A stretch of DNA of 64,000 bases from contig CACVAW010000061.1 in NCBI GenBank assembly GCA_902727925.1, forward strand, positions 713-64,712, written 5' to 3'. The notes under the pieces are model-generated. The model saw only the letters and a program-made list of their open reading frames with translations, was not told where the DNA came from and searched no databases. Each line of letters opens with the position of its first letter. Within the stretch, counting starts at the first letter, position 1. The position numbers and the translations under genes were made by a program. Shown in pieces: positions 13,019 through 53,054 of the stretch. Source of the DNA: an uncultured Campylobacterales bacterium (lineage in GTDB: Bacteria > Campylobacterota > Campylobacteria > Campylobacterales > CACVAW01).

Positions 13019-14085
13019 ATGAAATAAAAGATTTAGTAGCAATATCAAGATATGCTGGAGAAAGATTTGATTTGGTTCAAGCTGGAGGTGGAAATAGCTC
13101 AGTCAAGTTTGAATCTGGTGAAATGGTAATAAAAGCTTCAGGTTTTTTATTAAGTGATGTTTGTGATGATACTGGGTACTCAAAAGTTTATACAAAACAA
13201 ATATCACAAATCGTAAAAAATAAAGAAGTTATAAATACTACAATTAAAAAACAAAGAGAAGAAATAACATCTAAATTAGTTCAAGATGCCACAATAGATA
13301 CGCTCAATAGACCTTCTATTGAAACACTTTTACACTCTTTTTTGTCAAAATATACTTTACATACTCATCCGGTGGTTGTCAACATGATAGTTATTCAAAA
13401 AGAATTTAAAACAATTTTGAAAAATATCTTTAAAGATGATAATATAGTTTTAGTGAATTATCAAACTCCTGGAATTGAACTGGCTCTTGCGTTAGATAAA
13501 GAGTTAGAAAAGTGTTCAAAAACACCGAATATAATATTCCTTCAAAATCATGGTCTTATAGTAACTTCGGATAAAGTAGAAGAGATAAAAACATTAACAG
13601 AATATGTAATATCAAAAATAGAAAACTATCTAAATATAGATATGAATAAATATAAACTCACAAATAATATTACTTCACTTTTGAACTCTGTAAAAATAAA
13701 TTCAAATATATCTTATCTAAATGATGATCAATTTTTAAATGAACAAATAATAAAAAATAGAAATCTTTTTTTCGATACTCCTTTTTGTCCTGATAGTTTG
13801 GTATATTGTGGTGTTAGTAGTTGTGAGGTTGATGATTTAAGTAGTTGTGAAAGTATAAGAGAATATAAAAATAAATATTTTGAACTACCAAAAGTAATAC
13901 TTTATAAAAACCATCTTTTTTTTAATGCAATAAATATAAAAAAAGCAAAAGAAATACAAGAGGTTTTTAAATTTCATATTATGGTTTTGTCGAGAAATAA
14001 AGATACTGAGAATAATTTTTTAAGTTTAAATGAACTAGCTTATCTTAGTAATTGGGAAGCTGAAAAATACAGACAAGGTATATAA
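13015..14085 (+). CDS. class II aldolase/adducin-family protein (aldolase/epimerase/dehydratase-like)
   Basis: QAGGGNSSVK, IKASGFLLSDV, RPSIETLLHSF, HTHP and LQNHGLIVTS resemble the aldolase half of rhamnulose-1-P aldolase/SDR fusions. Confidence 0.65.
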   Translation: MNEIKDLVAISRYAGERFDLVQAGGGNSSVKFESGEMVIKASGFLLSDVCDDTGYSKVYTKQISQIVKNKEVINTTIKKQREEITSKLVQDATIDTLNRPSIETLLHSFLSKYTLHTHPVVVNMIVIQKEFKTILKNIFKDDNIVLVNYQTPGIELALALDKELEKCSKTPNIIFLQNHGLIVTSDKVEEIKTLTEYVISKIENYLNIDMNKYKLTNNITSLLNSVKINSNISYLNDDQFLNEQIIKNRNLFFDTPFCPDSLVYCGVSSCEVDDLSSCESIREYKNKYFELPKVILYKNHLFFNAINIKKAKEIQEVFKFHIMVLSRNKDTENNFLSLNELAYLSNWEAEKYRQGI

Positions 14086-28266: not shown

Positions 28267-29157
28267 ATGAAAGGTATAGTATTAGCAGGAGGAAGTGGAA
28301 CAAGATTGTATCCCATAACAAAAGGTGTAAGTAAACAACTTGTTCCTATATATGACAAGCCGATGATATATTATCCAATATCTGTATTGATGCTCTCAGG
28401 GATTAAAGAAGTACTTATTATCTCAACACCTACAGATTTGCCAAGATTTCAGGAACTTTTAGGTGATGGTAGTGATATTGGTATGAAGTTTGAATATGTA
28501 GTTCAGCCTAGTCCAGATGGTCTAGCTCAGGCGTTTATACTAGGTGAAGAGTTTATTGGGGATGATGATGTATGTTTAGTTCTTGGTGACAATATATTTT
28601 ATGGGGGAGGGTTAACTCACTTACTTCATAAGTCTGTAATTCAGGCCAAAGAAGAAAACAAAGCTACAGTATTTGGATACTATGTTAGTGATCCAGAGCG
28701 TTACGGGGTAGCTGAGTTTAATGATAGTGGTGATGTTATAAGTATAGAAGAAAAGCCAGAGGTAGCAAAGAGTAATTACGCGGTAGTAGGACTATATTTT
28801 TATCCAAATGATGTAGTAAAAAAAGCAAAACTTGTAAAACCTAGCCATAGAGGCGAACTTGAAATAACATCTCTTAATCAAGAGTATTTGAAAGAAAATA
28901 GACTCAAAGTCAAGCTTATGGGAAGAGGATATGCATGGCTTGATACAGGTACTCATGAGAGCTTGCTTGAAGCTAGCCAATTTATTCAAACTATAGAAAA
29001 TAGACAATCACTTAAAGTTGCTTGTCTTGAAGAGATAGCTTTTGAAATGGGATATATCTCAAAAGAAAAATTAATAAAATTAGCTCAACCATTGAAAAAA
29101 AATCAATATGGGCAGTATTTGATAAAAAGAGCTAATGAGGGAATAGTAGCAAGATGA
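28267..29157 (+). CDS. rfbA: glucose-1-phosphate thymidylyltransferase
   Basis: [33 protein letters not shown] and [12 protein letters not shown]. Confidence 0.95.
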
Positions 29158-29717
29158 ATTTCATAAGAACTAATATCCCTGATGTAGTAATATGTGAACC
29201 AGTAGTCCATGGAGATGATAGAGGCTATTTTATAGAGACTTTTAGACAAGATAAACTAGAAGAGTTTATAGGATATAGAATCAACTTCACTCAAGATAAT
29301 GAATCAAAAAGTTCACGAGGAGTTTTAAGAGGGTTACATTATCAGTTAGCACCTTATGCTCAAACCAAACTTGTTCGAGTAATAGCAGGAAGAGTTCTTG
29401 ATGTTGCTGTTGATATTAGAAAAGGAAGTCCTACCTTTGGTAAATATGTAGCAGTAGAATTAAGTGGGGAAAATAAAAGACAACTTTTAGTCCCTCGTGG
29501 ATTTGCTCATGGATTTGTTGTACTTGAAGACAATACTACATTTGCTTATAAAGTAGACAACTACTACAGTCCTGAGTGTGATAGAGGTATAGCTTATGAT
29601 AGTGTAGGTATTGATTGGCAGATCAAAGACCTCAAGCTCTCACCAAAAGATGAAGTTCAACCTACACTTCAAGATACAAAAGATTTATTTGATTATGGAA
29701 TTAATTACTATGAATAA
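29154..29717 (+). CDS. rfbC: dTDP-4-dehydrorhamnose 3,5-epimerase
   Basis: [16 protein letters not shown] and PRGFAHGF. Confidence 0.95.
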
Positions 29718-30579
29718 GATATTAGTAACTGGAGCAAATGGTCAGCTAGGTAGTGAAATAAAACAAGCTTCAAATAACTATTCTGAATATAAATTTTATT
29801 TTACTAGTAGAAAAGAACTTGATATTTCTAATCCTATAGACATAGAAAACTATATCAAAAATAATAATATAAGTATCATTATAAACTGTGCTGCATATAC
29901 AGCAGTAGACCTTGCTGAACAAGAAAAAGAGCAGGCCAACAGTATAAATAATATAGCAGTAAAAAATCTAGCAAATATATCAAAAAAATATAATATAAAG
30001 TTAGTTCACATCTCAACTGACTATGTATTTGATGGGACAAATCATAAGCCATATATAGAGACAGACGATACAAACCCTAAAAGTATATATGGACAAACAA
30101 AACTTGATGGAGAACAAGCAATATTAAGTATAAATCCATTAAATTCCATCATCATTAGAACATCATGGGTTTATAGCTGTTTTGGAAATAATTTTGTAAA
30201 AACAATGTTGAAACTTGGAAGTTCAAGAGATGAACTTGGTGTTATATCCGATCAAGTGGGAACTCCTACATATGCTAAAGATTTAGCTACAAGTATTTTG
30301 GATATACTGTCAAAAATAAAAAATAATAAAGTTGAGATTTATCATTATAGTAATGATGGTGTATGTAGTTGGTATGACTTTGCAAAAAATATTATGGATA
30401 TAGCTGATATTGATTGTAAGATTAATTCTATAGAAACAAAAGAATATCCAACACCAGCGTCAAGACCACATTATAGTATTCTGAACAAATCAAAGATTAA
30501 AAATGACTTTGAGATAAACATTCCTTATTGGAAAGATAGTTTGAGTGAATGTATAAAGAAAGTTTTGAATGATAAGTGA
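29710..30579 (+). CDS. rfbD: dTDP-4-dehydrorhamnose reductase
   Basis: ATG at 29710 gives [14 protein letters not shown]; the upstream extension in the track overlaps rfbC. Also STDYVFDG and YGQTKLDGE. Confidence 0.92.
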   Translation: MNKILVTGANGQLGSEIKQASNNYSEYKFYFTSRKELDISNPIDIENYIKNNNISIIINCAAYTAVDLAEQEKEQANSINNIAVKNLANISKKYNIKLVHISTDYVFDGTNHKPYIETDDTNPKSIYGQTKLDGEQAILSINPLNSIIIRTSWVYSCFGNNFVKTMLKLGSSRDELGVISDQVGTPTYAKDLATSILDILSKIKNNKVEIYHYSNDGVCSWYDFAKNIMDIADIDCKINSIETKEYPTPASRPHYSILNKSKIKNDFEINIPYWKDSLSECIKKVLNDK

Positions 30580-30582
30580 TGA

Positions 30583-30869
30583 ATGAAAAAATATAATTTT
30601 AGATAAGTCATTTCAAAACAATTACTTAGAAGTGGAACATCAATAGGTGCAAATATAAATGAAGCACAAGCAAGACAATCTAAAAAAGACTTTATATCTA
30701 AAATGAGTATAGCAAGTAAAGAGGCACGAGAAAGTAAGTACTAGAACTTCTCATAAGAACAGAGTACTTATCTCTTAAAGATAAGTATACAAGTAATTTA
30801 CTCAGCCAAGTAAATGAGACTATAAAAATAATAACAAGTATTGTGAAAACTTCAAAGGAAAATATCTAA
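30583..30869 (+). pseudogene. decayed four-helix-bundle (23S rRNA IVS / Avd-like) protein gene
   Basis: Reads MKKYNFR*VISKQLLRSGTSIGANINEAQARQSKKDFISKMSIASKEARESKY*. After a frameshift it continues (W)LELLIRTEYL...SIVKTSKENI*. The N-terminal helix is deleted. It is a paralogue of the intact gene at 52648-52998. Confidence 0.75.
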
Positions 30870-31909
30870 TGGAAAAATTCAAAATTCAAAATTCAAAATT
30901 CAAAACTATACTGGTCACTGGCTGTGCAGGTTTTATAGGGAGTAATTTTGTACCATATTTTTTGGATAAATATGAAGAATATAATTTAGTTAATTTAGAT
31001 TTACTAACTTATGCAGGAGATTTAAAAAACCTAAAAGAGTGTGAGAATAATTCTAGGTATAAGTTTATAAAAGGTGATATTTGTAATAGGGATTTAGTTG
31101 AATTTATATTTAATGAGTATGATATACAAGGTGTAATTCATTTTGCAGCTGAATCTCATGTTGATAACTCTATTAAAAATCCAGGAGTATTTATTGAGAC
31201 AAATGTGAATGGTACATTCACACTAATAGATGTTGCATATAAATACTGGATGAATAAACCATTTGAATACAAAGATAATTACAAAAACTCAAGATTTCAT
31301 CATATCTCAACAGATGAGGTATATGGTACACTCAATGAGGTAGATTTATTCACAGAGAGTACTCCATATGCACCAAACTCACCATACTCAGCATCTAAAG
31401 CATCAAGTGATATGATAGTTAGATCTTATCAAGAAACTTATGGAATGAATACAGTCATTACAAACTGTTCAAATAACTATGGACCAAAACAACACGACGA
31501 AAAATTGATTCCTACAATTATTAGAAAAGCATTATCAGGTGAATCAATACCTATTTATGGTGATGGTAAGAATATCAGAGATTGGTTATATGTACTTGAT
31601 CACTGCAAGGGAATCGACCTTGTATATCACAATGGAGCTGAGGGAAATGTATATAATATCGGAGGAAGAAATGAAAGAACAAATCTTCAAATAGTTGGTA
31701 GTATTTGTTCTATTCTAGATAAAAAAGTACCTCAAAAAGGATCATACAAAGAGCTAATAACTTTTGTAGATGATAGAGCAGGACACGATAGAAGATATGC
31801 AATAGATGCTACCAAACTAGAGAATGAACTGGGATGGAAAGCAGACGAAGATTTTGAAAGTGGCATAATAAAGACTATTGAATGGTATTTAGAGAAGTAT
31901 AATAAGTGA
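30869..31909 (+). CDS. rfbB: dTDP-glucose 4,6-dehydratase
   Basis: ILVTGCAGFIGSNF, HISTDEVYG and YSASKASSD. It carries an unusual 11-aa N-terminal extension encoded by a heptamer repeat. Confidence 0.93.
   Translation: MEKFKIQNSKFKTILVTGCAGFIGSNFVPYFLDKYEEYNLVNLDLLTYAGDLKNLKECENNSRYKFIKGDICNRDLVEFIFNEYDIQGVIHFAAESHVDNSIKNPGVFIETNVNGTFTLIDVAYKYWMNKPFEYKDNYKNSRFHHISTDEVYGTLNEVDLFTESTPYAPNSPYSASKASSDMIVRSYQETYGMNTVITNCSNNYGPKQHDEKLIPTIIRKALSGESIPIYGDGKNIRDWLYVLDHCKGIDLVYHNGAEGNVYNIGGRNERTNLQIVGSICSILDKKVPQKGSYKELITFVDDRAGHDRRYAIDATKLENELGWKADEDFESGIIKTIEWYLEKYNK
30874..30901 (+). repeat. 4 x AAAATTC heptanucleotide tandem repeat inside codons 2-11 of rfbB
   Basis: Read directly: units at 30874-80, 30881-87, 30888-94 and 30895-901, followed by a partial AAAAC. 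Confidence 0.9.
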
Positions 31910-31944
31910 AATATTTATGTTTTAGAAGTAGGTTTAAATAGTAT

Positions 31945-32580
31945 ATGCAACCAACAAATCCAAAGATTTATCATATTGTTCATATTGATAAACTTCAGTC
32001 TATTGTAGATAATTGTGGGCTTTTGAGTCATAGTGAAGTGATAGGATTAGCTCTTGGTGGCACAACTATTGGAATGGATAGTATTAAACAAAGAAGACTT
32101 AATAAACTTACCTTTAGTACTTATCCTGACCTTTTTGTAGGGCATTGTGTTCCATTTTATTTTTGCCCTAGATCTGTGATGCTTTATACGATTGACATGA
32201 ATAATAAGGATATTAGATATCAAGGTGGTCAAGATAATATTATCCATCTTGAAGCTGATTTGATGCAGTCTATTCATTGGGCTAATACAAATAGTAAAAG
32301 ATGGGCATTTACATATTCAAATGCAGGTTCGTATTATTTTGAAGATACAAATGATTTGAAAAATTTAACAAATTTAGATTGGAATGCAATAAATGCTATA
32401 AATTGGAAGGGAATGAAAGAAAATAAACAAGCAGAATTTTTATGTGAAAATAACTTTTCTTGGAATTTGGTTGAGAGAATTGGAGTTTCAAACCAAACTG
32501 TTTATCAACAAGTTTTAAATATAATACAAAGTTCATATCACAAACCATTTGTTGAAATAAAAAATGATTGGTACTATTAG
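31945..32580 (+). CDS. darT: DarT (DUF4433) ssDNA ADP-ribosyltransferase toxin
   Basis: IYHIVHIDKLQSI, VPFYFCPRSVMLY and KQAEFL (catalytic Glu context) match hallmark DarT motifs; 211 aa. Confidence 0.88.
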   Translation: MQPTNPKIYHIVHIDKLQSIVDNCGLLSHSEVIGLALGGTTIGMDSIKQRRLNKLTFSTYPDLFVGHCVPFYFCPRSVMLYTIDMNNKDIRYQGGQDNIIHLEADLMQSIHWANTNSKRWAFTYSNAGSYYFEDTNDLKNLTNLDWNAINAINWKGMKENKQAEFLCENNFSWNLVERIGVSNQTVYQQVLNIIQSSYHKPFVEIKNDWYY

Positions 32581-32591
32581 TGGAGAGAGTA

Positions 32592-33635
32592 ATGATTAAG
32601 TATAAAAATGGTGATATATTAAAAGAGGATACAGAAGCTATTGTTAATACTGTAAATTGTGCTGGTGTGATGGGTAGAGGTCTTGCTTTACAATATAAAA
32701 ATAAATTTCCACAAAACTTCAAAGCCTATGCTTATGCCTGTAAAAATAAAGAAGTACAACCTGGAAAAATGTTTGTATATCAAACTGGACAATTAGTTAG
32801 TCCAAAATATATTATCAACTTTCCAACAAAAAGACACTGGAAAGCACATAGTAAAATAGAAGATATCGAAAATGGCTTAGATGATTTAATACAGGTTATA
32901 CAAAAATTAAGTATAAAATCAATAGCCATTCCACCACTTGGAAGTGGTCTTGGTGGATTAGATTGGAAAGTAGTCAAGCAAAAAATAAAGAAAAAACTAT
33001 CATTTGTTGATTGTGAAGTTTTAGTCTATGAACCACTTGAACAAAGAATCCAAAAAATTCAAACACAAGAATTACCTAAGATGACAGCAGGTCGTGCGGC
33101 ACTTTTGGAACTTATGGATAGGTATATTAAAGGCTTTATGGATCCATTTATTAGTTTACTTGAAGTACATAAGCTTATGTATTTTATGCAAGAAGCAGGA
33201 GAACCTTTGAAGCTTAAGTACCAAAAAGCTCATTTTGGACCATATGCAGATAATCTTAGACATGTTATGAATACTATAGAGGGTCACTTTGTTAGTGGCT
33301 ATGAAGATGGAGGAGACTCACCTACAAAACAACTTAAACTTGTAAAAGAAGCAGTTAAAGATGCAAAAGATTTCTTAGCAAACAAAAAAGAAACCCAACG
33401 AAATTTTGAAAAAGTGGCTGAACTTGTAGATGGGTTCGAAACACCATTTGGACTTGAACTTTTGGCTACAGTGCATTGGGTGGTTAAGTATGAAAATGCA
33501 AAAAGTATTGATGAAGTAGTTAAAAAAGTGTATAGTTGGAATGAAAGAAAAAAGCAGTTTACCGAAAGACAGATAAATATAGCATTTGATACTTTAGTAA
33601 AAAATGATTGGATAGATTTGGGTGTAGATTATTAA
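32592..33635 (+). CDS. darG: DarG macrodomain antitoxin (ADP-ribosyl-DNA glycohydrolase plus C-terminal DarT-binding domain)
   Basis: ATG at 32592 preceded by GGAGAGAG. Macrodomain motifs GDILKEDTEAIVNTVNCAGVMGRGLA and IAIPPLGSGLGGLDW, plus a ~190 aa C-terminal domain. Confidence 0.88.
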   Translation: MIKYKNGDILKEDTEAIVNTVNCAGVMGRGLALQYKNKFPQNFKAYAYACKNKEVQPGKMFVYQTGQLVSPKYIINFPTKRHWKAHSKIEDIENGLDDLIQVIQKLSIKSIAIPPLGSGLGGLDWKVVKQKIKKKLSFVDCEVLVYEPLEQRIQKIQTQELPKMTAGRAALLELMDRYIKGFMDPFISLLEVHKLMYFMQEAGEPLKLKYQKAHFGPYADNLRHVMNTIEGHFVSGYEDGGDSPTKQLKLVKEAVKDAKDFLANKKETQRNFEKVAELVDGFETPFGLELLATVHWVVKYENAKSIDEVVKKVYSWNERKKQFTERQINIAFDTLVKNDWIDLGVDY

Positions 33636-33685
33636 TGATAGCGTTTAATAAATCACTATGTGTACTTAGATGTGCTAAAATGACA

Positions 33686-33790
33686 AATGCTACCAAACTA
33701 GAAAATAAGCTTGGATGGAAAGCAAATGAAAACTTTGATACTGGTATAATAAAGACTATTGAATGGTATTTAGGGAAGTATAATAAGTGA
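33686..33790 (+). pseudogene. detached copy of the rfbB 3' end (copy 2)
   Basis: Aligns to 31805-31909 over 105 nt with 13 mismatches by my count, only 1 of them in the last 45 nt. It encodes ...ATKLENKLGWKANENFDTGIIKTIEWYLGKYNK* with no upstream dehydratase body. Confidence 0.9.
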
Positions 33791-35139
33791 CAAAAAAAGA
33801 TATATCAAACCTTATTTCAAAAAGTGAAGGTCAATATATTGAGTTTAAAACCTCTTTTCAAAAAGAAGTTATAGTCTCAGTAGTAGCTTTCTCAAATACA
33901 AAAGGTGGAAATATACTTATAGGAATAGATGATAATGAAAATATCCTAGGTGTTAATATATCTAAAGAAACCATCCAAAACTATATTAATGAAATCAAGC
34001 AAAACACACAGCCTTCTATTATAGTTGATATAGATGAATTTGAAATACAATCTAAGAAAATATTGAATATAACTATCAAAGAGTATCCCCTAAAACCAGT
34101 TGCTTATAAAAATAGATATTACAAAAGAGTTAAAAACTCAAATCACCTTATGAGCTTGAGCGAAATTTCAAATGAACATATAAAAACTTTTAATACTTCT
34201 TGGGATTATCATATAGATACTAGGCATGATTTTGAAGATATATCACTTAAAAATGTAGAAAAATTCATTCAAAAAATTGAATCAAATCAAAATAAAACTT
34301 TTAAAGATGATGCATATACTATTTTGAAAAAATATGAACTCATAAAAGAAAATAAACTTACATTTGGAGCTTATCTACTTTTTACTTCAAACGAATCAGC
34401 ACTTACTTCATTTCAAATAGGAAGGTTCAAAACACAAACTCATATCATAGACAACATAGATATAAATACTAATCTATTTGATCAAATAGATTTAGTAATG
34501 AATGGGATAAAAAAACATTTGATGACAGAATTTGTCATCACAGGTGAACCACAAAGGAAAATCAAGTACGATTATCCACCTCAAGCTATAAGAGAGATAG
34601 TTGTAAATATGATAGTTCATAGAGATTATAGAGATAGTGGAAATTCGATCATTAAAGTTTACGATGATAGAATAGAGTTTTTTAATCCTGGAAAACTATA
34701 TGATGATATTACTATACAGAAGCTAAACTCAGGAAATTATTCTTCGAGAACAAGAAATAGAGCAATAGCTAGAGCATTTAAAGAAGCTGGTATTATAGAA
34801 AGATATGGTTCAGGTATATCAAGAATAAAAGATGAATGTAGTAGACACGGTCTTAAGCAACCAAAAATAGAAGAGTTTGTACATGGTTTTAGAGTTATAC
34901 TATTTAAGAACACAAATGTCGGAGTAAATGTCGGAGTAAATGTCGGAGTAAATGTCGGAGTAAACCAAGTATATGATTTTATCAAACAAAACCAACCCAT
35001 AAGAACAAATACAATAGCCGAAAATTTTCCTACCGTGACTCAACGAACTATAGAAAGATATATAAAAAAACTCAAAGATGAAAAGAAAATAGATTTTGTA
35101 GGTAGTTCAAAAATTGGGGGATATATAATTATATGGTGA
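33787..35139 (+). CDS. Schlafen/AlbA_2 domain - HATPase_c_4 - wHTH protein (COG2865-type), copy 1
   Basis: The GTG start overlaps the remnant rfbB stop. N-terminal ESQ/EGQYIEFK...AFSNTKGGNILIGIDD (AlbA_2), IREIVVNMIVHRDY...RNRAIARAF...ERYGSGI (HATPase_c_4) and a C-terminal HTH tail. Confidence 0.8.
   Translation: MTKKDISNLISKSEGQYIEFKTSFQKEVIVSVVAFSNTKGGNILIGIDDNENILGVNISKETIQNYINEIKQNTQPSIIVDIDEFEIQSKKILNITIKEYPLKPVAYKNRYYKRVKNSNHLMSLSEISNEHIKTFNTSWDYHIDTRHDFEDISLKNVEKFIQKIESNQNKTFKDDAYTILKKYELIKENKLTFGAYLLFTSNESALTSFQIGRFKTQTHIIDNIDINTNLFDQIDLVMNGIKKHLMTEFVITGEPQRKIKYDYPPQAIREIVVNMIVHRDYRDSGNSIIKVYDDRIEFFNPGKLYDDITIQKLNSGNYSSRTRNRAIARAFKEAGIIERYGSGISRIKDECSRHGLKQPKIEEFVHGFRVILFKNTNVGVNVGVNVGVNVGVNQVYDFIKQNQPIRTNTIAENFPTVTQRTIERYIKKLKDEKKIDFVGSSKIGGYIIIW
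34915..34962 (+). repeat. 4 x 12-bp perfect tandem repeat AATGTCGGAGTA (NVGV x4), in frame
   Basis: Read directly. It lies in the linker between the HATPase-like domain and the wHTH of the 33787 gene. Confidence 0.95.
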
Positions 35140-35147
35140 ATTTTGTA

Positions 35148-35240
35148 AAACTAGAAAATAAGCTTGGCTGGAAAGCAGATAAAGATTTTTTAGGTATTGT
35201 TAAAATAATTAATTGGAATTTAGGGAAATATAATGGGTAA
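35148..35240 (+). pseudogene. detached, more decayed copy of the rfbB 3' end (copy 3)
   Basis: Encodes [30 protein letters not shown]. It has a one-codon deletion and is about four fifths identical to copy 2. Its end overlaps the fdtA ATG. Confidence 0.8.
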
Positions 35241-35655
35241 TTATAAAGTAATTAACTTTAAAACTTTAGGTGATGATAGAGGTTCTTTAATAGCTATAGA
35301 GCAAGGATATAATGCTCCTTTTGATATTAGTAGAGTATATTATATATTTGACACTAAAAAAGATGTTGAAAGAGGTTTTCATGCGCATATCAATCTCAAA
35401 CAAATTGCTATATCTGTTAAAGGTAGTTGTACTTTTGTCCTAGATAATGGAGAGAAAAGAGAAGAGGTAAAAATTGACAATCCAAATCAAGGTCTTTTTA
35501 TAGAAGGTCTTATTTGGAGAGAGATGAAGGACTTTAGTGAAGATTGTGTTCTAGTTGTGCTTGCAAGTGAACATTACGATGAGAATGATTATATAAGAGA
35601 TTATGAAAAGTTTTTAGAAGAGGTAAAAAATGATTCATCACTTAGCAGACGTTAG
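35233..35655 (+). CDS. fdtA: dTDP-4-keto-6-deoxyglucose 3,4-ketoisomerase (FdtA/QdtA, WxcM-like cupin)
   Basis: [22 protein letters not shown] and RGFHAH; 140 aa. The galacto versus gluco product cannot be told from sequence. Confidence 0.85.
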
Positions 35656-36139
35656 TTCCAAAAATATTGGATTAAATACAAATATTTGGCAATTTTGTGT
35701 AGTGTTAGAAAACGCAAGAATTGGTAATAACTGTAATATTAACGCAAATGTTTTTATTGAAAATAATGTTGTTATAGGTGATAATGTAACTATAAAATCA
35801 GGAGTTCAAATTTGGGATGGGATAACTTTAGAAGATAATGTTTTTGTAGGTCCTAATGTGACTTTTAGCAATGATCTTACTCCTAGAAGTAAGCAATATC
35901 CTGATAAGTTTCTTGAGACATTAGTTAGAAATGGTTCATCTATAGGTGCAAATAGTACTATTATTGGTGGTGTTGTTATCGAAGAATATGCAATGATAGG
36001 AGCAGGGAGTATGGTTACAAAGTCTATTGGTAAACAAGAACTTTGGTATGGTAATCCTGCTAAATTTCATAGCTATATATGCAAGTGTGGCAACAAATGT
36101 GATGATAAATTAATTTGTGATAACTGTAAAGGAAAGTAA
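35630..36139 (+). CDS. left-handed beta-helix N-acetyltransferase (FdtC/QdtC-like)
   Basis: Hexapeptide repeats ([34 protein letters not shown]) and FSNDLTPRS. It has a Cys-rich C-terminal tail. Confidence 0.8.
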
Positions 36140-36141: not shown

Positions 36142-37248
36142 ATGATTCCATTTTTAGATTTAAAAGGCATAAATGCACAATATAGAAATGAGCTTATCGA
36201 AGCATGTACAAAAGTAATAGATAGTGGTTGGTATATTCAAGGAAATGAATGTAAGGCTTTTGAAAAAGAGTTTGCTTCATTTTGTGGTACAAGGTATGCA
36301 ATAGGTGTTGCTAATGGTCTAGATGCTTTATCTTTAATACTTAGAGCTTATAAAGAACTAGATATTATAAAAGATGGAGACGAAGTGATTGTCCCTTCAA
36401 ATACTTATATCGCTTCTATATTGGCAATTTCTGAAAATAATTTGGTTCCTGTTTTGGTTGAGCCCAATATTGATACTTATTTAATAGACCCAGAAAGAAT
36501 AGAAGAAAAAATAACATCAAAAACTAAAGCTATTATGAGTGTTCATCTCTATGGACAAACATGTGAAATGGATAAAATAAATAAGATAGCCAAAAAATAT
36601 AATCTAAAAGTTATAGAAGATTCAGCTCAATCACATGGTGCATACTTTAAAGATAAAAAATGTGGGAATTTAGGTGATGCTAGTGGATTTAGTTTTTATC
36701 CAGGTAAAAATCTCGGAGCATTAGGTGATGGTGGCATAGTAACAACAAATAATGAAGAATTAGCTGATACAATCAAAGCGTTAGGTAATTATGGGAGTCA
36801 TACAAAATATGAAAATATTTATCAAGGGACAAATAGTCGGTTAGATGAAATGCAAGCAGCAATGTTACGAGTAAAACTTAGGTTTCTTGATAGTGAGATA
36901 AAAGTAAGAAGAGAAACTGCAGATTATTATATTGAAAATATTAAGAATGAAAATATTACTTTGCCTACCTTAAGAACAAACAATAATCATGTTTGGCATC
37001 TCTTTACAATACGAACAAATAAAAGAACGGAGTTACAAAAATATCTTTTAGATAATGGTATTCAAACTTTGATACATTATCCATTACCTCCACATAAACA
37101 AGAAGCTTATAGAAAATGGAATAATGAAAGTTTTGTGATAAGTGAAACAATACATGACGAGATTTTGAGCTTGCCTATTAGTGGTATTCAAAAAATAGAA
37201 GATACAAAAGAAATAACAAGATTAATTAATAAATGGAGAGAAAAATGA
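36142..37248 (+). CDS. DegT/DnrJ/EryC1-family PLP sugar aminotransferase (FdtB/QdtB-like)
   Basis: [17 protein letters not shown] and [15 protein letters not shown]; 368 aa. Confidence 0.88.
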
Positions 37249-38537
37249 ATAAAACAGTATATATAGGAATGAGCGCAGATTTAGTACATCCTGGACATAT
37301 GAATATACTTCAAGTAGGGGCTGAACTCGGAGAAGTTGTTGTAGGACTTTTGACGGATAAGGCAATTGCAAGTTATAAAAGACTTCCATATATGACTTAT
37401 GAACAAAGAAAGTTAGTAATCGAAAATATAAAAGGAGTTAAAGAAGTAATTCCTCAAGATACCCTTGACTATAGACCTAACTTGGAATTGATTAAACCTG
37501 ACATTGTGGTTCATGGAGATGATTGGAAAGAAGGTGTTCAAAGTAAAACTAGACAACAAGTACTCGATACTTTAAGTCAGTGGGGTGGTGAGCTAGTTGA
37601 ACCAAATTATACATCTGGTATTTCATCTACACAATTAAATAATTCATTAAAAGAACTAGGTACTACTCCAGATATTAGAAGAAGTAGACTAAGAAGATTA
37701 ATAGACTCAAAAGAAGTAGTTAGAATTTTAGAATCTCATAATGCTCTAAGTGGTCTTATTGTAGAAAATATAAAATCTGATGATGGTGTAGAGTATGATG
37801 GAATGTGGTCAAGTTCTTTAACTGATTCTACTTCAAAAGGTAAGCCAGATATTGAAGCTGTTGATGTTAGTACAAGAATATCTACAATAAATGAAATATT
37901 TGAAGTTACAACAAAGCCGATGATTTATGACGCAGATACAGGTGGAATTGCAGAACATTTTGCATTTACAGTTAGGACTTTAGAACGAACAGGAATTAGT
38001 GCTGTAATAATAGAAGATAAGACAGGTTTAAAAAAGAATTCTTTATTTGGTAATGATGTAGCTCAAACACAAGATACTATAGAAAATTTTTGTGAAAAAA
38101 TTAAAGCTGGTAAAAAAGCACAAATAACAGATGACTTTATGATTATCTCTAGAATTGAAAGTTTAATTTTAGAAAAAGGTATGGATGACGCAGTATTAAG
38201 AGCAAAAGAATATATAAAAGCTGGTACAGATGGTGTTATGATACATTCAAGACTTAAAGAACCAAATGAAATTATAGAATTTTGTCAAATAATAAGAAAA
38301 TATGATGAGAATATTCCAATTATTGTTGTTCCTACAAGTTATAATCAAATTACAGCAAAAGAGTTAAGTAAAGTTGGTATAAATGTAGTTATTTATGCAA
38401 ATCATATGTTAAGAGCAGCTTACCCTGGAATGAAAAATGTAGCTAAATCTATACTTCAAAATGACAGAAGTTTAGAAGCAGAAGAAAATCTTTTATCAAT
38501 TAAAGAAATACTAGACTTGATACCAGGAACTAAATAA
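37245..38537 (+). CDS. pepM: bifunctional HxGH cytidylyltransferase-like domain / phosphoenolpyruvate phosphomutase
   Basis: ATG at 37245 overlaps the upstream stop, with RBS GGAGAG. N-terminal [15 protein letters not shown]...HGDDW. PEP mutase/ICL-fold motifs DADTGG and [12 protein letters not shown]. Confidence 0.85.
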
Positions 38538-39610
38538 TGGCGTTAGACACAAAGAAGTTTATAGAAAGTTTAATAGAAGAAAAATACACTCATTTGTGTG
38601 TTGTCCCTTGTAGTTTTGTAAAATATGTAATTAATGAAGCTATTAATAATCCAAATATAGAGTATGTCCCATGTGCTAGTGAAGCTGTAGCTTGTTCTGT
38701 TGCAGCTGGCCTTAAAATGTCGGGTAGTAGTCCGATGGTTATTGTTCAATCTTCAGGTGTGACAAATATGGGAAGTTGTATTACAAGTCTACTTAAGCCT
38801 TATGATGTAACTTTTCCAATTCTTACAAGTTGGAGAACTTATAAAAGTGGCGATAGTGAGATACAACATGAACATTTAGCTACAGAACTTCCTAAACTGA
38901 TTAAGGCTTATGGGTATGAATATACTATCTTAGATAATGAAAACTTAGAAAATACAATATCTCAAATAAATACTTGTGATGAGACAAATACAGTAGCAAT
39001 TATAAAAAAAGATAGTTTTACAAAAATAGAATTAGATGATAAACATAAATTAAATTTATTGGAATACACTCCACGAAGTGAATTTTTAACAAAATTAAAT
39101 GAAGACTTTAAAAGTACAGATGTTATTTTTATAGGTACAACTGGAAATACTGCTAGAGAAATGTATAGTTTCATGCCAGATACTAATAACTTCTATATGG
39201 CGGGTAATATGGGAGGAGCTTTAAGTCTAGGATTAGGCTTTGCAATGTCAGGGAAAAAAGTAATTGTTTGTGGTGGAGACGCTGAATTTGTTATGCATAT
39301 GGGCGGGCTTACAACAGCAGGAAGATACAGAGATAAAATAGATTTGACTTATATATTATTTGATAATGAATCTAATAAGTCTACTGGTGGACAAAATACT
39401 TATCAACAACATATTGACTATGTAAATATAGCTAAAAGTTGTAACTTTGATTTATTTGATAATGGTAAAGTAAACAAATTAGATAAATTTGAAGAGTTTA
39501 CTCAAACGCTAAAAAACAAATCTGGACTTAATTTTGTGTGTGTTAAGTGCGGTGTTGATGATGAAACTCCTAGACCACCTTTAGAAGTGGTTAAAGTAAA
39601 TAGAGTTTAG
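38537..39610 (+). CDS. ppd: phosphonopyruvate decarboxylase (ThDP-dependent)
   Basis: ThDP-binding motif GGDAEFVMHMGG...FDNESNKSTGGQ. It sits immediately after pepM. Confidence 0.85.
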   Translation: MALDTKKFIESLIEEKYTHLCVVPCSFVKYVINEAINNPNIEYVPCASEAVACSVAAGLKMSGSSPMVIVQSSGVTNMGSCITSLLKPYDVTFPILTSWRTYKSGDSEIQHEHLATELPKLIKAYGYEYTILDNENLENTISQINTCDETNTVAIIKKDSFTKIELDDKHKLNLLEYTPRSEFLTKLNEDFKSTDVIFIGTTGNTAREMYSFMPDTNNFYMAGNMGGALSLGLGFAMSGKKVIVCGGDAEFVMHMGGLTTAGRYRDKIDLTYILFDNESNKSTGGQNTYQQHIDYVNIAKSCNFDLFDNGKVNKLDKFEEFTQTLKNKSGLNFVCVKCGVDDETPRPPLEVVKVNRV

Positions 39611-40684
39611 ATGGAAAAAGATTTTACTTATTATATGCCAACAAAGATTGTATATGGACAGGATAAACTTGATGAATTAGACAAATATATAAATGGTAGA
39701 AAAGCTCTACTTATTACTTCTACAGGCTTTATCAAAAGAGGTTTGGTGGATAGGATTAAGAGTCTAACATCTAGTATTGTATATGTAATAAGTAATATAA
39801 AAACTCATCCAGAGTTTATAGACTTAGAAACTATATATAATAGTGTAAAAGATATTGACTTTGAAATTATATTAGCAGTTGGTGGGGGTAGTGTACTTGA
39901 CGCCTCAAAATTTATTTCAGTTCAGAATGATTTGAGAGAGTATCAATTTGTTGAAGATATTGTAAAAGGTAAAATACAAAAAAAAGACTATAACTTAATA
40001 CCTATTATTTCTATACCTACAACAGCTGGAACTGGAAGTGAAATAACTCCTTGGGCTACAATATGGGATATGATAGAAAAAAAGAAATATTCTCTTCATT
40101 TACCTGAATTATTTAGTGAAACTGCGATTTATGATCCATTATTAACACTAAGTGTACCTAAAGAAATAACTATTCAAACAGGCCTAGATACTCTTTCTCA
40201 TGCCTTAGAGTCTATTTGGAACAAAAATGCAAATGAAATTACTATAAATTATGCCGTGAAATCTGCAAGATTAATTATTCAAAACTTAGTTAAGTTATCA
40301 ACTAATCTAGATAATATAGAATATAGAGATAATATAATGAAAGCTTGTATGTACGCGGGACTTGCCTTTTCTAATACTCAAACAGCCATAGCTCATGGTA
40401 TGAGTTACTATATAACAGCGAATAAAGGGATTCCTCATGGAATTGCATGTAGTTTTACACTCCCTTTATTAATAGATAGTGTTATAGGAAAATATCATTT
40501 TATAGATGACGCTTTAACAAATATTTTTGGAGAGTTGTCTTCTAACAAATTAAGAAGCATATTAAAAGAATTAAGTATTTCTACTGAATTTAAAGATTAT
40601 GGAATAAGTGATTTTGAACTTAAAAACCTTAACTTATCACTTCAAAATAACCAGCGAGCTGGAAATAGTTTGGTTGTGATTTAA
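39611..40684 (+). CDS. iron-containing (group III) alcohol dehydrogenase, candidate phosphonoacetaldehyde reductase
   Basis: GGGSVLDASKF, TTAGTGSE and the metal-ligand His regions LSHALES and IAHGMSY. The position after ppd suggests the substrate; that is an inference. Confidence 0.75.
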   Translation: MEKDFTYYMPTKIVYGQDKLDELDKYINGRKALLITSTGFIKRGLVDRIKSLTSSIVYVISNIKTHPEFIDLETIYNSVKDIDFEIILAVGGGSVLDASKFISVQNDLREYQFVEDIVKGKIQKKDYNLIPIISIPTTAGTGSEITPWATIWDMIEKKKYSLHLPELFSETAIYDPLLTLSVPKEITIQTGLDTLSHALESIWNKNANEITINYAVKSARLIIQNLVKLSTNLDNIEYRDNIMKACMYAGLAFSNTQTAIAHGMSYYITANKGIPHGIACSFTLPLLIDSVIGKYHFIDDALTNIFGELSSNKLRSILKELSISTEFKDYGISDFELKNLNLSLQNNQRAGNSLVVI

Positions 40685-44766: not shown

Positions 44767-44883
44767 TTGTATAAAATTTCAATAATAATACCAACATATA
44801 ACGCACAAGAGTATTTACCAAAGTTATTAAATAGTCTTAAAATCTGTATAGTTCAAAAGCTAAGAGGTAGAAATAAATCTTGA
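44767..44883 (+). pseudogene. truncated duplicate of the 5' end of the GT2 gene at 45747
   Basis: 44773-44808 is identical to 45771-45806 (KISIIIPTYNAQ). Similarity continues for about 35 more nt and is then lost. The reading frame stops after 38 codons. Confidence 0.8.
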
Positions 44884-44950: not shown

Positions 44951-45763
44951 ATGATATATGATAGAGAATATTTTTCTAAAATAATTGCAGATAAAATTTT
45001 AAAAAATGAGAATGAAATTTATGAACAGTTCAATTCAGGTAATAAAATTTCATCTTTTATAATAGATGAACTACTTCCAGTAGAGGAGGCTACAAAAATC
45101 TATAATAGTTTTCCTAAACCTGAAGATATGAAAGTAAAAAAAAGTTTAAGAGAATACAAATTTATAGATGCTCAATTGAATAAACATAATAAAATACTTG
45201 AAGAAATAACTTATGCCTTTCACGAAAAAATAGTAATTGATGCTATTAGTAAAACGATTAAAATTAATGGACTTATTGCAGACGAACAGTTATATGCTGG
45301 AGGGTTAAGTCGAATGGAAAAAGGACAATATTTAAATCCTCATTTAGATAATTCACATAATAAAGATAGGTCTTTATACCGAGTATTAAATCTTTTATAT
45401 TATGTTTCTCCTAATAGAAAAATTGAAGATGGTGGTAATTTAGAACTATGGGATGAAGGACCTAAAAAAGAGCAAAGAACTATATATTCAAAATTCAATA
45501 GACTTGTTGTTATGATTACAAATAGAGATTCATGGCACTCCGTTAGTAAGTTAGAAAAAGGTGCTAGATGTTGTATTTCAAATTATTACTTTTCAGAAAA
45601 ACCTTTAACTAAAGAAGACTATTTTCATATTACTTCTTTTAGAGGTTTTCCTAATCAATATATACGCGATAAAGTTTTGTTATTGGATATAAAATTGAGA
45701 ATGGGACTTAGAAAAATATTTAAAAAAGGTATAGTAGATAACTCTCATGTATATAAAAAATGA
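44951..45763 (+). CDS. 2-oxoglutarate/Fe(II)-dependent oxygenase
   Basis: HxD...H facial triad context: NPHLDNSHN...GGNLELWD...DSWHSV. RBS AAAGGAG lies upstream. Confidence 0.7.
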   Translation: MIYDREYFSKIIADKILKNENEIYEQFNSGNKISSFIIDELLPVEEATKIYNSFPKPEDMKVKKSLREYKFIDAQLNKHNKILEEITYAFHEKIVIDAISKTIKINGLIADEQLYAGGLSRMEKGQYLNPHLDNSHNKDRSLYRVLNLLYYVSPNRKIEDGGNLELWDEGPKKEQRTIYSKFNRLVVMITNRDSWHSVSKLEKGARCCISNYYFSEKPLTKEDYFHITSFRGFPNQYIRDKVLLLDIKLRMGLRKIFKKGIVDNSHVYKK

Positions 45764-46697
45764 TATAAATAAAATTTCAATAATAATACCAACATATAAC
45801 GCACAAAGATATTTACCAAAGTTATTAGATAGTATTAAAACTCAATCTATAAAAAATTATGAACTACTAATAATAGATTCAAGTTCATCTGACAAAACAG
45901 TTGAAATTGCTAAAGAATATACTGAAAATGTGATAGTAATACCTCAAAGTGAATTTGATCATGGTGGTACGAGAGCTAAAGCTGCACAAATAGCTTCAGG
46001 GGAGATTCTTGTATATCTTACTCAAGATGCACTTCCTTGTGATGATTATACAATAGAGAGTATCATAAAAGTATTTGAAGATGAAAAAATAGGTGCTGCT
46101 TATGGTAGGCAGTTAAGCTATGATGATACTAATCTTTTTGGTAAGCATCTACGAGAGTTTAATTATAGTAAAAATTCATATATAAGAGATAAAAGTGACA
46201 TTAAACAATTTGGTTTGAAAACAGCTTTTTTATCTGATAGTTTTGCTGCTTATCGTAAGAGTGCTTTACAAGATATAGGATTGTTTAAAAGTGATTTGAT
46301 ACTAGGTGAAGATACTTATGCAGGTGCAAAAATGATATTAGATGGATATAGTCTTGCTTATGTTAGTGAAGCACAAGTATATCATTCCCATAGTTATACC
46401 GTGTGGCAAGAATTTAAAAGATATTTTGATATAGGTGTATTTCATAAATATGAAGACTGGATACTGGAGCGTTTTGGTAAGGCTGAGGGTGAAGGGAAGA
46501 GATATATCAAATCTGAAGTTAAGTATCTACTTAAGAATAAATCTTGGTATCTATTGCCTGAATGGTTTGTACGCAATGGTATGAAATATTTGGGGTATAA
46601 ATTAGGTCAAAAATATGAAAAACTACCAAAATGGATGATAAAAAGAATGAGTATGCATCATAGATGGTGGGACAAAAAAATAGACTCTAAAAAATAA
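45747..46697 (+). CDS. GT2-family glycosyltransferase (rhamnosyltransferase-like)
   Basis: ISIIIPTYNAQRYL, LLIIDSSSSDKT, FDHGGTR and TQDA. Confidence 0.8.
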   Translation: MYIKNDINKISIIIPTYNAQRYLPKLLDSIKTQSIKNYELLIIDSSSSDKTVEIAKEYTENVIVIPQSEFDHGGTRAKAAQIASGEILVYLTQDALPCDDYTIESIIKVFEDEKIGAAYGRQLSYDDTNLFGKHLREFNYSKNSYIRDKSDIKQFGLKTAFLSDSFAAYRKSALQDIGLFKSDLILGEDTYAGAKMILDGYSLAYVSEAQVYHSHSYTVWQEFKRYFDIGVFHKYEDWILERFGKAEGEGKRYIKSEVKYLLKNKSWYLLPEWFVRNGMKYLGYKLGQKYEKLPKWMIKRMSMHHRWWDKKIDSKK

Positions 46698-48055
46698 TGC
46701 AAAAACTAAACCTCAAAGAATCACAAACTATAGAATTCAAAGAAGTATGGAAAGACGAGTACTTAAAAACTATATGTGCATTTGCTAATAGTGATGGTGG
46801 GGTGATATATATTGGTATTGATGATAGCTCAAACATAGTAGGTTTAAAAGATACAAAAAATATCATAGAAGTTTTGCCAAATAAGGTAAATAATAGACTT
46901 GGTCTTATAGTGGATATTAATTTAAGATATAAAAGTAGCTTAGAGTATATCGAGATGATAATCCAAAAAACATATGCACCAATATCATATAATGGAAAGT
47001 TTTATAAAAGAAGTGGTAGCAATACAATTGAATTAAATGGAGTTAATCTTACAAACTTTTTACTTAAGAAGTATGGCAAGACTTGGGATGATGTTTCTGA
47101 AGAAAAATTTGGGCTTGATGAGATAGATTTGAGTACTATTGAGAAGTTTAAAAAGCTCTCAAGAGATAGGATACCAGATATACAAAGTCAAACGAATTTA
47201 GAAGAACTATTAAGAAAACTTAATCTATATGATGGTGAATATCTTAAAAGAGCTGCGATTTTGTTATTTGGTAAGAATCCACAAATGTATTATGTGCAGT
47301 CTCATTCTAAGATAGGTAGATTTTTAAGTGAGACTGATATTCAAAGTAGTGATATCATAGAGGGTAACCTCATAGATCAAGTAGATAAGATTATGGATGT
47401 GTTAAGGCTGAAGTATCTTAAAGCTTATATCTCGTATGAGGGAATGCATAGAAGAGAAAAGCTTGAATATCCATATGAAGCTCTTCGTGAGGCTGTAATA
47501 AATGCACTCATACATAGAGACTATACAAATACTTCAAATCTTCAAATAAAAGTATATGATGACAAGCTTGTCATGTATAATGGAGCTACACTAAGTAGTG
47601 AAGTACCTATAGATAGGTTTGATAAGCCTCATCAATCAAAGCCATTTAATCCTACTATGGCAAATGTATTTTATAAGTGTGGGTTTATAGAGAACTGGGG
47701 AAGAGGTACACTTAATATCATAGATGATTGTGTAGAGTACGGACTACCTAAACCTTTGTTTGAATATGAGTGGACTGCTGTAAGGACTACATTTTTTAAA
47801 ACCACCCAAGAAACCACCCAAGAAACCACCCAAGAAACCACCCAAGAAACCACCCAAGAAACCACAAAGAGCAAAATAGTAAAACTACTAAAAGAGAATC
47901 CCAAATACACAAAACAAGATATGATGAACATACTAAATAAAGGTGACTCAACAATAAAAGAGCATCTTGCAAACCTCAAAAGAGAAGGTATAATAACAAG
48001 AGTAGGAAGCACAAAATCAGGATATTGGAAAATACTAAAAGGAGATAATGAATGA
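46697..48055 (+). CDS. Schlafen/AlbA_2 domain - HATPase_c_4 - wHTH protein (COG2865-type), copy 2
   Basis: ESQTIEFKEVW...AFANSDGGVIYIGIDD, LREAVINALIHRDY, NWGRGT and a C-terminal wHTH. Its start overlaps the GT2 stop (TAATG) and its stop overlaps the manC start. Confidence 0.8.
   Translation: MQKLNLKESQTIEFKEVWKDEYLKTICAFANSDGGVIYIGIDDSSNIVGLKDTKNIIEVLPNKVNNRLGLIVDINLRYKSSLEYIEMIIQKTYAPISYNGKFYKRSGSNTIELNGVNLTNFLLKKYGKTWDDVSEEKFGLDEIDLSTIEKFKKLSRDRIPDIQSQTNLEELLRKLNLYDGEYLKRAAILLFGKNPQMYYVQSHSKIGRFLSETDIQSSDIIEGNLIDQVDKIMDVLRLKYLKAYISYEGMHRREKLEYPYEALREAVINALIHRDYTNTSNLQIKVYDDKLVMYNGATLSSEVPIDRFDKPHQSKPFNPTMANVFYKCGFIENWGRGTLNIIDDCVEYGLPKPLFEYEWTAVRTTFFKTTQETTQETTQETTQETTQETTKSKIVKLLKENPKYTKQDMMNILNKGDSTIKEHLANLKREGIITRVGSTKSGYWKILKGDNE
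47801..47860 (+). repeat. 5 x 12-bp perfect tandem repeat ACCACCCAAGAA (TTQE x5), in frame
   Basis: Read directly. It is followed by a partial unit ACCACA and occupies the same linker position as the NVGV repeat in copy 1. Confidence 0.95.
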
Positions 48056-52577: not shown

Positions 52578-52648
52578 AATTGTAAATTATGAATGATGAG
52601 TTATGAATTAGTAGGTATACTAAAATTCATCATTTATAATTTACAATT
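52578..52648. repeat. 22-bp inverted repeat (1 mismatch) with 27-nt spacer abutting the stop of the four-helix-bundle gene
   Basis: AATTGTAAATTATGAATGATGA (52578-99) versus the reverse complement of TCATCATTTATAATTTACAATT (52627-48). Confidence 0.8.
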
Positions 52649-52998: not shown

Positions 52999-53021
52999 AA
53001 AAAATAAATCCTTAATTCATC

Positions 53022-53038: not shown

Positions 53039-53054
53039 CATAATTCATAATTTT

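Follow-up and report, generated by a model that had tools for sequence, protein, structure and literature searches.

How accessory genes come to be added to a bacterial surface-glycan operon that lacks the machinery of a mobile element is the question raised by a 64,000-nucleotide stretch of DNA from an uncultured Campylobacterales bacterium (contig CACVAW010000061.1), the whole of which is termed the window here. Surface-glycan loci are the main determinants of phage receptors, and few parts of bacterial genomes are exchanged as often. In the window the 3′ end of rfbB, a sugar dehydratase gene, is present three times, once in the intact gene and twice as a short orphan, and these three tails bracket the toxin-antitoxin pair darT-darG and a Schlafen-like AlbA_2 gene lying ahead of fdtA. 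Tails 2 and 3 are probably scars left when one-ended recombination struck the 3′ border of rfbB twice in succession; if so, the locus displays base by base a way for a glycan operon to gain accessory genes without mobile-element machinery, the displaced ends staying behind as an ordered record. The features concerned, which include several short open reading frames (ORFs), are as follows.

30869-31909, + strand: rfbB/rmlB (dTDP-glucose 4,6-dehydratase family), intact, 346 aa, its last 105 nt being tail 1
31910-31944, + strand: spacer of 35 nt from the rfbB stop to the darT start, holding the left joint of the DarTG block
31945-32580, + strand: darT, ssDNA thymidine ADP-ribosyltransferase toxin, 211 aa
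32568-33635, + strand: darG, macrodomain antitoxin, with a 13-nt overlap with darT
33635-33657 (end approximate), + strand: degT 5′ head remnant, from BLASTN against loci L089/L090
33635-33790, + strand: chimeric 51-codon ORF, degT head and rfbB tail 2 in frame, from translation
33686-33790, + strand: rfbB tail 2, a mosaic remnant repeating the rfbB 3′ end
33787-35139, + strand: AlbA_2 (Schlafen-like)/HATPase_c_4/HTH gene, 450 aa, from Pfam
35136-35240, + strand: open 34-codon frame enclosing tail 3, with its GTG on the AlbA_2 stop (GTGA) and its TAA on the fdtA ATG
35148-35240, + strand: rfbB tail 3, the most decayed remnant, L009-like, repeating the rfbB 3′ end
35233-35655, + strand: fdtA (WxcM-like isomerase), first gene of an fdtA/fdtC/fdtB module (Pfam FdtA E=3.9e-48)

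Tail 2 differs from tail 1 (31805-31909, the 3′ end of the intact rfbB) at 13 of 105 positions, of which a single one falls within the final 45 nt, and ends in an identical TGA, which the GTG start of the AlbA_2 gene (33787) overlaps. Tail 3 is one codon shorter than tail 1, and its TAA overlaps the fdtA ATG as ATGGGTAA. A preliminary description, made from the letters of the window alone, had located the three copies to within 1 nt with exact mismatch counts, and the two start codon overlaps that it reported are confirmed in the sequence. When the rfbB end was searched against the window with BLASTN, tail 2 scored 134 bits (E=2e-34) and tail 3 scored 53.6 bits (E=6e-10), the chance level being set by a top score of 32.8 bits in 30 shuffled windows. 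Full-length rfbB matched only itself, 33687-33790 and 35148-35234 in the 64 kb. No 5′ parts of rfbB were found at the remnants, the frames upstream of tails 2 and 3 hold stops, and the apparent further resemblance to rfbB at 33658-33685, directly ahead of tail 2, was not significant, with 945 of 2000 shuffles scoring equally. The locus presents, as a displacement array does, an intact gene followed by ordered orphan 3′ ends of the same gene without their 5′ parts. Such tail remnants are rare, a self-search of 75 species-level rfbB loci yielding one (L049), and neither in the relatives nor in the window are the tails parts of intact rfbB paralogues, which the preliminary description had named as the outcome that would speak against it.

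The differences between tails 1 and 2 are unevenly spread, with 48 of 60 positions identical in the 5′ part (80%) and 44 of 45 in the 3′ part (98%; Fisher p=0.006). For comparison, 76 species-level rfbB alleles gave 2,850 natural pairs, 1,498 of which had a 5′ identity of 75-85%; in these the mean 3′ identity was 72% and the maximum 92%, none reaching 97%. No natural pair matches this pattern, from which it follows that the tail underwent homologous exchange, and judging from the sequence a crossover or conversion tract ends near nt 60. The lone difference in the 3′ part is an A/G at nt 89, where AGAGAA in tail 1 becomes the Shine-Dalgarno-like AGGGAA before the AlbA_2 GTG, and tail 3 has the same G at this site before the fdtA ATG.

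At residues invariant in the 76 alleles, tail 3 carries the substitutions E15K, T24I and Y28N in addition to its codon deletion, and D1N is the sole such change in tail 2; tail 3 is the more decayed and therefore the right-most remnant is the oldest, as sequential displacement predicts. Tail 3 also shares K8, G30 and GIVK with the rfbB allele of L009, to which it is 87% identical in the 3′ part, and L009 is the only one of the 76 natural alleles having both K8 and G30. Tails 2 and 3 both carry K8 and G30; their 5′ parts are only 83% identical, as in unrelated alleles. The earlier suggestion that the tails derive from differing donor alleles is supported, tail 3 being nearest to the L009 allele, which natively abuts fdtA. 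The left boundary of the tails was also considered as a conservation boundary of rfbB and this was rejected, conservation being about 0.8 on either side with the most conserved block 15-45 nt upstream.

The nature of the joints is revealed by comparison with Aliarcobacter-type DarTG loci. The window is 78-80% identical in DNA to L089 and L090 from 31940-31942 to 33652-33659, and the BLASTN match extends 17-24 nt beyond the darG stop into the start of their degT. The degT head remnant in the window reads ATGATAGCGTTTAATAAATCAC (MIAFNKS), L089 and L090 reading MIPFNKPPF, with 19 of 22 nt matching L089, and the TAATG stop/start overlap between darG and degT has been retained as in these two loci. 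Because the DarTG homology includes the start of degT, the right joint of the block is illegitimate and its source a glycan operon; having been lifted from another glycan operon, DarTG is therefore not a free-standing cassette. The chimeric ORF at 33635-33790, which translates as MIAFNKSLCVLRCAKMTNATKLENKLGWKANENFDTGIIKTIEWYLGKYNK and a stop and was called as a 51-aa gene in L088, bridges darG (TAATG overlap) to AlbA_2 (GTGA overlap), while the AlbA_2 stop (35137-35139) is followed by tail 3 within 9 nt. The joints to the left of each remnant, between degT head and tail 2 and between the AlbA_2 stop and tail 3, are illegitimate and not homologous, the cassette ends having no homology to the recipient sequence, as expected of the one-ended homology of homology-facilitated illegitimate recombination (HFIR). 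The right side of each remnant looks native, with tail 3 meeting fdtA as in L009 and rfbB meeting AlbA_2 as in L021. Each orphan tip stands with its native downstream partner and, by the L009- and L021-type junctions and the decay gradient, the oldest lies farthest away. The two bridging ORFs (33635-33790 and 35136-35240) may preserve translational coupling, and such retention is within the reach of neutral decay: selection holding the tail 3 frame open was not significant, 15-20% of simulated neutral decays staying open. Small chimeric ORFs such as 33635-33790 should be recognized as scars and not annotated as genes.

The junction states that the scars imply are found in relatives. Full-length rfbB directly abuts fdtA with nothing between in L009, L037 and L067, the fdtA of L009 being 84% identical in nucleotides to that of the window, and in L021 full-length rfbB is immediately followed by an AlbA_2 homologue (68% identical). 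The preliminary description had called for a survey of cassette content at the rfbB-fdtA junction, and this content does vary, from none in L009, L037 and L067 to a glycosyltransferase in L052, wzm/wzt in L032 and, in L034, a PemK/MazF-like toxin together with an NTase+HEPN pair and a further NTase module. The metagenome-assembled genome (MAG) holding L034 is labelled Candidatus Paceibacteria, which is probably binning contamination, its RfbB (84%) and FdtA (86%) being Campylobacterota-like. Two small ORFs lie just past the next gene in L034 and by sequence alone resemble a DUF4160/DUF2442 pair, these features of L034 falling in 11279-13162 and 14169-14729.

Scars of the same kind occur at other genes, one of them a mirror image in the same locus of the window, where a head remnant of a GT2 glycosyltransferase gene (44771-44842) is 93% identical over 72 nt to 45769-45840 within the intact GT2.

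44771-44842, + strand: GT2 5′ head remnant, in ORF 44767-44883 with its own ribosome-binding site (RBS) and a TTG start
44951-45763: 2OG-Fe(II) oxygenase gene, between the GT2 head remnant and the intact GT2
45747-46697: intact GT2
46697-48055, + strand: second AlbA_2/HATPase_c_4/HTH paralogue, 29% identical to the first

In L175, an unrelated metagenome contig, a 129-nt 5′ head of asnB lies upstream of darT (5224-5352 compared with 7055-7183, 88%), with the intact asnB after darG. With the GT2 head in the window and the asnB head in L175, the scar signature is not specific to rfbB. Simple remnants are seen in L083, where a duplicated degT tail (14-332; LMNPYLSDEEIEYISKAL up to the stop) lies between full-length degT and AlbA_2, in L084/85, where an RmlD C-terminal fragment follows AlbA_2 (L084 1610-2023, aa 178-315, 72%), and in L049, where a 57-nt rfbB tail remnant (11166-11222) follows the full rfbB with no cassette. 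In L089 a stretch of 50 nt upstream of rmlA (5-53 compared with 2062-2111), at the edge of the sequence covered, is 82% identical to the rfbB tail of that locus and may be either a remnant or the 3′ end of a further full-length rfbB.

The order of the events, the intermediate states and the recombination pathway are what we infer from the repeats, the anatomy of the junctions, the mosaic tail, the native junctions in relatives and the recurrence of scars, together with the gene content of the window, in which Pfam scans of the ORFs of at least 100 aa across the 64 kb found no integrase, transposase or other recombinase gene; a recombinase could lie outside the 64 kb. The starting point would have been an L009-like rfbB directly abutting fdtA, a native state present in relatives. 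DNA in which an rfbB 3′ end natively precedes AlbA_2 would then have recombined with the resident rfbB, restoring a full-length rfbB with AlbA_2 behind it and pushing the last ~93 nt of the resident gene (tail 3, with fdtA) downstream. In the second event a fragment cut from another glycan operon, comprising an rfbB end, darT, darG and the first ~23 nt of degT, would have recombined likewise, with the result that the degT head reads in frame into tail 2. Such an event could have been a Campbell-type single-crossover integration of a circularized fragment carrying ~100 nt of rfbB, which would duplicate the homologous segment, or a homologous crossover in or upstream of rfbB coupled with an illegitimate joint ~100 nt before the recipient stop, as an HFIR-like replacement; both would yield this end product and are not separable from it. 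A later crossover or gene-conversion tract in the tail would have rendered tails 1 and 2 near identical over their final 45 nt. The scheme of the preliminary description, an ancestral rfbB-fdtA junction that received successive, transposase-free insertions stacked at the rfbB border, is upheld by the steeper decay of tail 3 than of tail 2, by the L009-type native junction and by the absence of transposase and integrase genes from the ORFs scanned. In E. coli, DNA with one-sided homology gave mostly duplications of 109-950 bp, by single crossover of the recircularized fragment, with true HFIR leading to deletions (PMC3240628).

Several observations weigh against this reconstruction. The joint from AlbA_2 through tail 3 to fdtA is attested by a single MAG assembly. 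Both remnants start within 3-12 nt of each other, for which P is ~0.02 with random breakpoints in a gene of 1041 nt, and the 45-nt identity could stem from later intrachromosomal conversion unrelated to insertion. Among the relatives no intermediate of the form rfbB-AlbA_2-tail-fdtA without DarTG and no strain-level variation were found; the other contigs of the window's lineage, reached through exact RfbB and DarT look-ups as short contigs of the same project, are all identical, and an exact-protein look-up of FdtA returned no record. Nor was a donor found in which rfbB is immediately followed by darT, L089 having 3 kb between them.

In a strict version of the preliminary description, purely homologous double exchanges would carry the cassettes, the remnant tails of the donor serving as portable homology arms that pair with the rfbB tail of the recipient. 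The homologous breakpoint inside the mosaic tail 2 agrees with such pairing, which would also explain why the left boundaries are similar, as these would be inherited, and why a second remnant arose at a locus already holding one; the K8 and G30 common to tails 2 and 3 fit as well. However, an initial illegitimate event would still be needed for each cassette-tail joint, no other genome was found in which rfbB tails flank homologues of DarTG or AlbA_2, and in their 5′ parts tails 2 and 3 stand about as far apart as unrelated alleles do. Exchange anchored in the tail is retained in so far as a breakpoint lies there, while the right joints of the cassettes, being illegitimate, depart from the proposal, which as a whole is possible though doubtful. 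A different history would begin with tandem modules rfbB-darTG-degT, rfbB-AlbA_2 and rfbB-fdtA, from which rfbB copies 2 and 3 were deleted with ~100 nt spared. Each tail does have a native-looking junction to its downstream gene and some glycan loci hold several SDR dehydratase genes, but none of 80 relatives has two close tandem rfbB copies, the extra hits being paralogues of 22-32% identity. This history moreover calls for two independent deletions with ends no more than ~10 nt apart, one beginning exactly at the AlbA_2 stop and the other at about +23 of degT, and does not predict the 45-nt identity tract; it is quite unlikely.

That two remnants begin at almost the same codon, that the cassettes are neatly bounded, their genes ending right at the tails, and that one locus has two remnants when only one of 75 relatives has any, would all suit a site-specific cassette system in which the ~100-nt rfbB tail is an attachment site (attC/attI or phage-att-like) used by circular cassettes and a recombinase encoded elsewhere. 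Against this stand the failure to find integrase, transposase or Xer-type genes in the 64 kb and the secondary structure of the tails, which does not exceed that of shuffles: no attC-like fold emerged from single-stranded folds of the three tails on both strands (z -0.78 to +0.68). Analogous remnants come from unrelated genes and from either end (GT2 head, asnB head, degT tail, rmlD tail), a degT fragment on the DarTG block is unexpected for a defined cassette, and homologues of both passengers have idiosyncratic flanks, such that a site-specific system is very unlikely. Least probable of all is a metagenome-assembly chimera, in which contigs of different strains were joined via a shared rfbB tail and the array exists in no single genome. 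The window does come from a MAG, repeats are classic sites of misjoining, and the AlbA_2-tail 3-fdtA joint is without independent confirmation. Yet contigs from a different assembler and two other runs together span rfbB-darT-darG-tail 2-AlbA_2 at 100% identity, the Logan assembly L088 (ERR3801603) across darG-tail 2-AlbA_2 and L001 (ERR3801542) across rfbB-darT-darG, and therefore the array is not an artefact of one assembler. Exact runs are at most 28 nt between tails 1 and 2 and at most 20 nt between tails 2 and 3, under the usual final k-mers, and since 20 nt is the longest exact match of tail 3 to another tail it is too short to mislead an assembler; nor would a misjoin give rise to an in-frame degT::rfbB fusion.

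Two successive one-ended events being the favoured reading, the locus can be set beside known arrangements. The loci for O-antigen and capsule are mosaic: blocks are exchanged by recombination in rml genes or in conserved genes at the flanks, and the joints are marked by remnants of truncated genes. Unlike those remnants, the window has stacked gene-end duplicates that bracket toxin-antitoxin (TA) or defence-type passengers, with an in-frame degT::rfbB bridge, a combination not described in the searched literature. Where e14 or phage 21 integrates in icd, the element brings a 3′ end that keeps the target intact, and the native end is moved to the far side as a pseudo-copy; an integrase gene and a defined att core belong to such elements, but neither was found here among ORFs of at least 100 aa or in the tail folds. 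An integron-type cassette array is likewise not indicated, with no attC-like hairpin and no tyrosine or serine recombinase gene among the ORFs scanned. The locus is a recombination scar of the already known displacement-array type and is not unprecedented.

Displacement arrays of this type have so far been reported from polymorphic-toxin loci. In rhs and contact-dependent inhibition (CDI) loci C-terminal displacement occurs and homologous recombination with circular intermediates has been proposed (Jackson et al., 2009, PMC2935791). As in those loci, the 5′ body of the gene is intact, a new 3′ end displaces the old one downstream, the orphan tips keep their own downstream gene and there is no dedicated recombinase; unlike them, the gene is a housekeeping sugar dehydratase rather than a polymorphic toxin, its orphan tips of only 93-105 nt are non-functional and almost alike in what they encode, and the gain consists of unrelated passengers (a TA pair and a Schlafen-like gene) and not of a new tip. 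In type VI secretion (T6SS) effector-immunity arrays of Vibrio cholerae, sequential displacement with HFIR has been proposed, giving an integron-like appearance without an integrase (Kirchberger et al., 2017, PMC5361080). Common to these arrays and the window are an upstream anchor that is conserved, a build-up in which the oldest module is farthest downstream, and 3′-end remnants left behind; the window differs in being a glycan operon whose retained downstream genes are biosynthetic or passengers, not orphan immunity genes, and in showing directly that a homologous breakpoint lies within the repeat. The anatomy is also that reported by Amarir-Bouhram et al. (2011, PMC3240628), with an intact gene, a foreign insert and a duplicate of the homologous end, and with homology on one side and an illegitimate joint at the other; theirs were laboratory events on engineered substrates, whereas those proposed here are natural and occurred twice at one site, the end product being compatible with either pathway, single crossover or HFIR. 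HFIR itself is taken here from de Vries and Wackernagel (2002) and Prudhomme et al. (2002), as these are cited in PMC3240628 and PMC5361080.

With regard to the passengers, DarT matches Pfam PF14487 (E=7.1e-58; residues 9-211, profile positions 1-201 of 201) and the PADLOC DarT profile (E=4.3e-62) at full length, and DarG matches its PADLOC profile (E=7.9e-141, positions 1-327 of 329) and Pfam Macro (E=1.7e-26), such that at the sequence level the pair belongs to the DarTG family. This family is known for abortive infection. The window's DarG is 100% identical to P0121, a protein from an uncultured Campylobacterales MAG. The five distinct contexts examined for the closest DarG homologues (74-77% aa identity), namely L089, L090/91, L092-94, L175 and L176/177, are without exception glycan operons with which these genes share orientation, and homologues of the DarTG block sit as darG-degT in Aliarcobacter glycan loci. 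A polysaccharide locus of Aliarcobacter butzleri (L090, 2130-7029) has two DarTG copies of 77% DNA identity with degT and a 112-aa Cys-rich ORF between them, and in several loci darT is preceded by conserved ORFs of small size (84-85 aa, 70 aa or 111-112 aa), none with a Pfam match.

The AlbA_2 protein has the expected architecture of SLFN_AlbA_2 (PF04326, 1.9e-24), HATPase_c_4 (PF13749, 1.9e-24) and HTH_11 (PF08279, 1.5e-5), with 1,106 homologues at E<=1e-20. A metagenome scan with the single AlbA_2 protein gave no close relative and was followed by one that used an alignment. There are 86 loci with homologues (49-72%), those at 65-72% identity sitting in glycan operons. Pfam annotation of 125 immediate neighbours identified 13 DegT, 7 SDR dehydratases, 4 Wzx, 4 Ugd, 4 PseB-like, 4-5 ABC/Wzm-like, 3 WecB, about 9 glycosyltransferases (GTs) and 3 23S_rRNA_IVP. 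The second AlbA_2 paralogue itself sits tightly between GT2 and manC, start and stop codons overlapping. This steady embedding in glycan operons suggests that the role of AlbA_2 is tied to glycan loci, as a regulator or in a guardian or addiction function. The preliminary description had spoken of immunity genes; compared with the PADLOC defence catalogue, the AlbA_2 gene had no full-length match and only partial ones to pAgo-associated proteins (E=1e-17, residues 148-350, profile positions 322-538 of 876), and for it the label is therefore unproven. Within Campylobacterota, members of this DarTG clade and of the AlbA_2 family are regularly housed in glycan operons and share their orientation, a linkage not described in the searched literature, in which nothing relevant was found on DarTG or AlbA_2 in O-antigen or capsule loci. 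Both AlbA_2 genes of the window have a perfect in-frame 12-nt tandem repeat in the linker from HATPase_c_4 to HTH, of 4.2 units in the first (NVGV, 34914-34964) and of 5.6 units at the same position in the second (TQET, 47799-47865), and the length of these linkers could vary by slippage.

On a wider view, which at present is rather unlikely, the glycan operons of Campylobacterota would be a recombinase-free integration niche for TA or defence-type passengers, in which short fragments with ~70-130 nt of the end of a conserved sugar gene circularize and integrate by RecA-dependent single crossover, abortive-infection genes spread with glycan variants, and the tails act as reusable homology arms and coupling bridges. 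Were this so, the sugar gene (rfbB, asnB, GT2 or degT) would be regenerated each time and passengers stacked in operon orientation, and abortive-infection genes would perhaps stabilize variants of the surface glycan as phage receptor. If the linkage of DarTG and AlbA_2 to glycan loci is general, it would tie receptor switching to intracellular defence or locus addiction, and the C-terminal displacement model, so far applied to polymorphic-toxin loci, would extend to ordinary biosynthetic operons.

A single large glycan-biosynthesis region spans ~7.4-50.8 kb of the window and is co-directional as far as manC at 49.4 kb, with genes for a GDP-mannose dehydratase, GTs, wzx, ugd, a Wzy_C/ligase-like gene, rml, fdt, a PEP-mutase phosphonate module and manC. 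RfbB is a full-length extended-SDR dehydratase (Pfam GDP_Man_Dehyd PF16363, E=1.4e-89, residues 15-334 of 346), is 73-89% identical in aa to the RfbB of 80 Campylobacterota loci and, as befits an rfbB, is encoded in an rmlA-rmlC-rmlD-rfbB block (rmlA, rmlC and rmlD at 28267-30579), its 3′ border being the divide between this conserved block and the variable part of the surface-glycan operon. The genes on either side of the features listed above are the following.

28267-29157: rmlA, rml block
29154-29717: rmlC, rml block
29611-30579: rmlD, rml block
30600-30868: decayed 23S_rRNA_IVP-type pseudogene, between rmlD and rfbB
35630-36139: hexapeptide acyltransferase
36142-37248: DegT-type aminotransferase

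The passenger genes are co-oriented with the operon, their start and stop codons overlapping or abutting, and no terminator was found on the + strand between 30.5 and 35.7 kb; DarTG and AlbA_2 are probably co-transcribed with the operon. Promoter- and terminator-like sites in and around the tails showed no excess over shuffle expectation, and GC and GC3 gave no signal of foreignness for the cassettes, every gene having 26-35% GC.

The phosphonate module inside the glycan operon (37233-40684), comprising a CTP-transferase-fused PEP mutase, a phosphonopyruvate-decarboxylase-like TPP enzyme and an Fe-ADH, suggests a surface glycan that bears phosphonate. A perfect heptanucleotide repeat, AAAATTC in 4.6 units (30874-30905), falls within the opening 12 codons of rfbB and is a candidate phase-variation switch because gain or loss of one unit would shift the rfbB frame; a related repeat, TAATTCA in 5.7 units, lies at 53013-53052. 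The 23S_rRNA_IVP pseudogene upstream of rfbB (four-helix bundle, bAvd-like) is 5′-truncated and frameshifted, with an intact paralogue at 52648-52998 on the - strand. A 105-nt tandem repeat of 2.1 units (91%) at 63108-63324, 3′ of an AAA_14/DUF4143 gene, duplicates an RBS and ATG start region.

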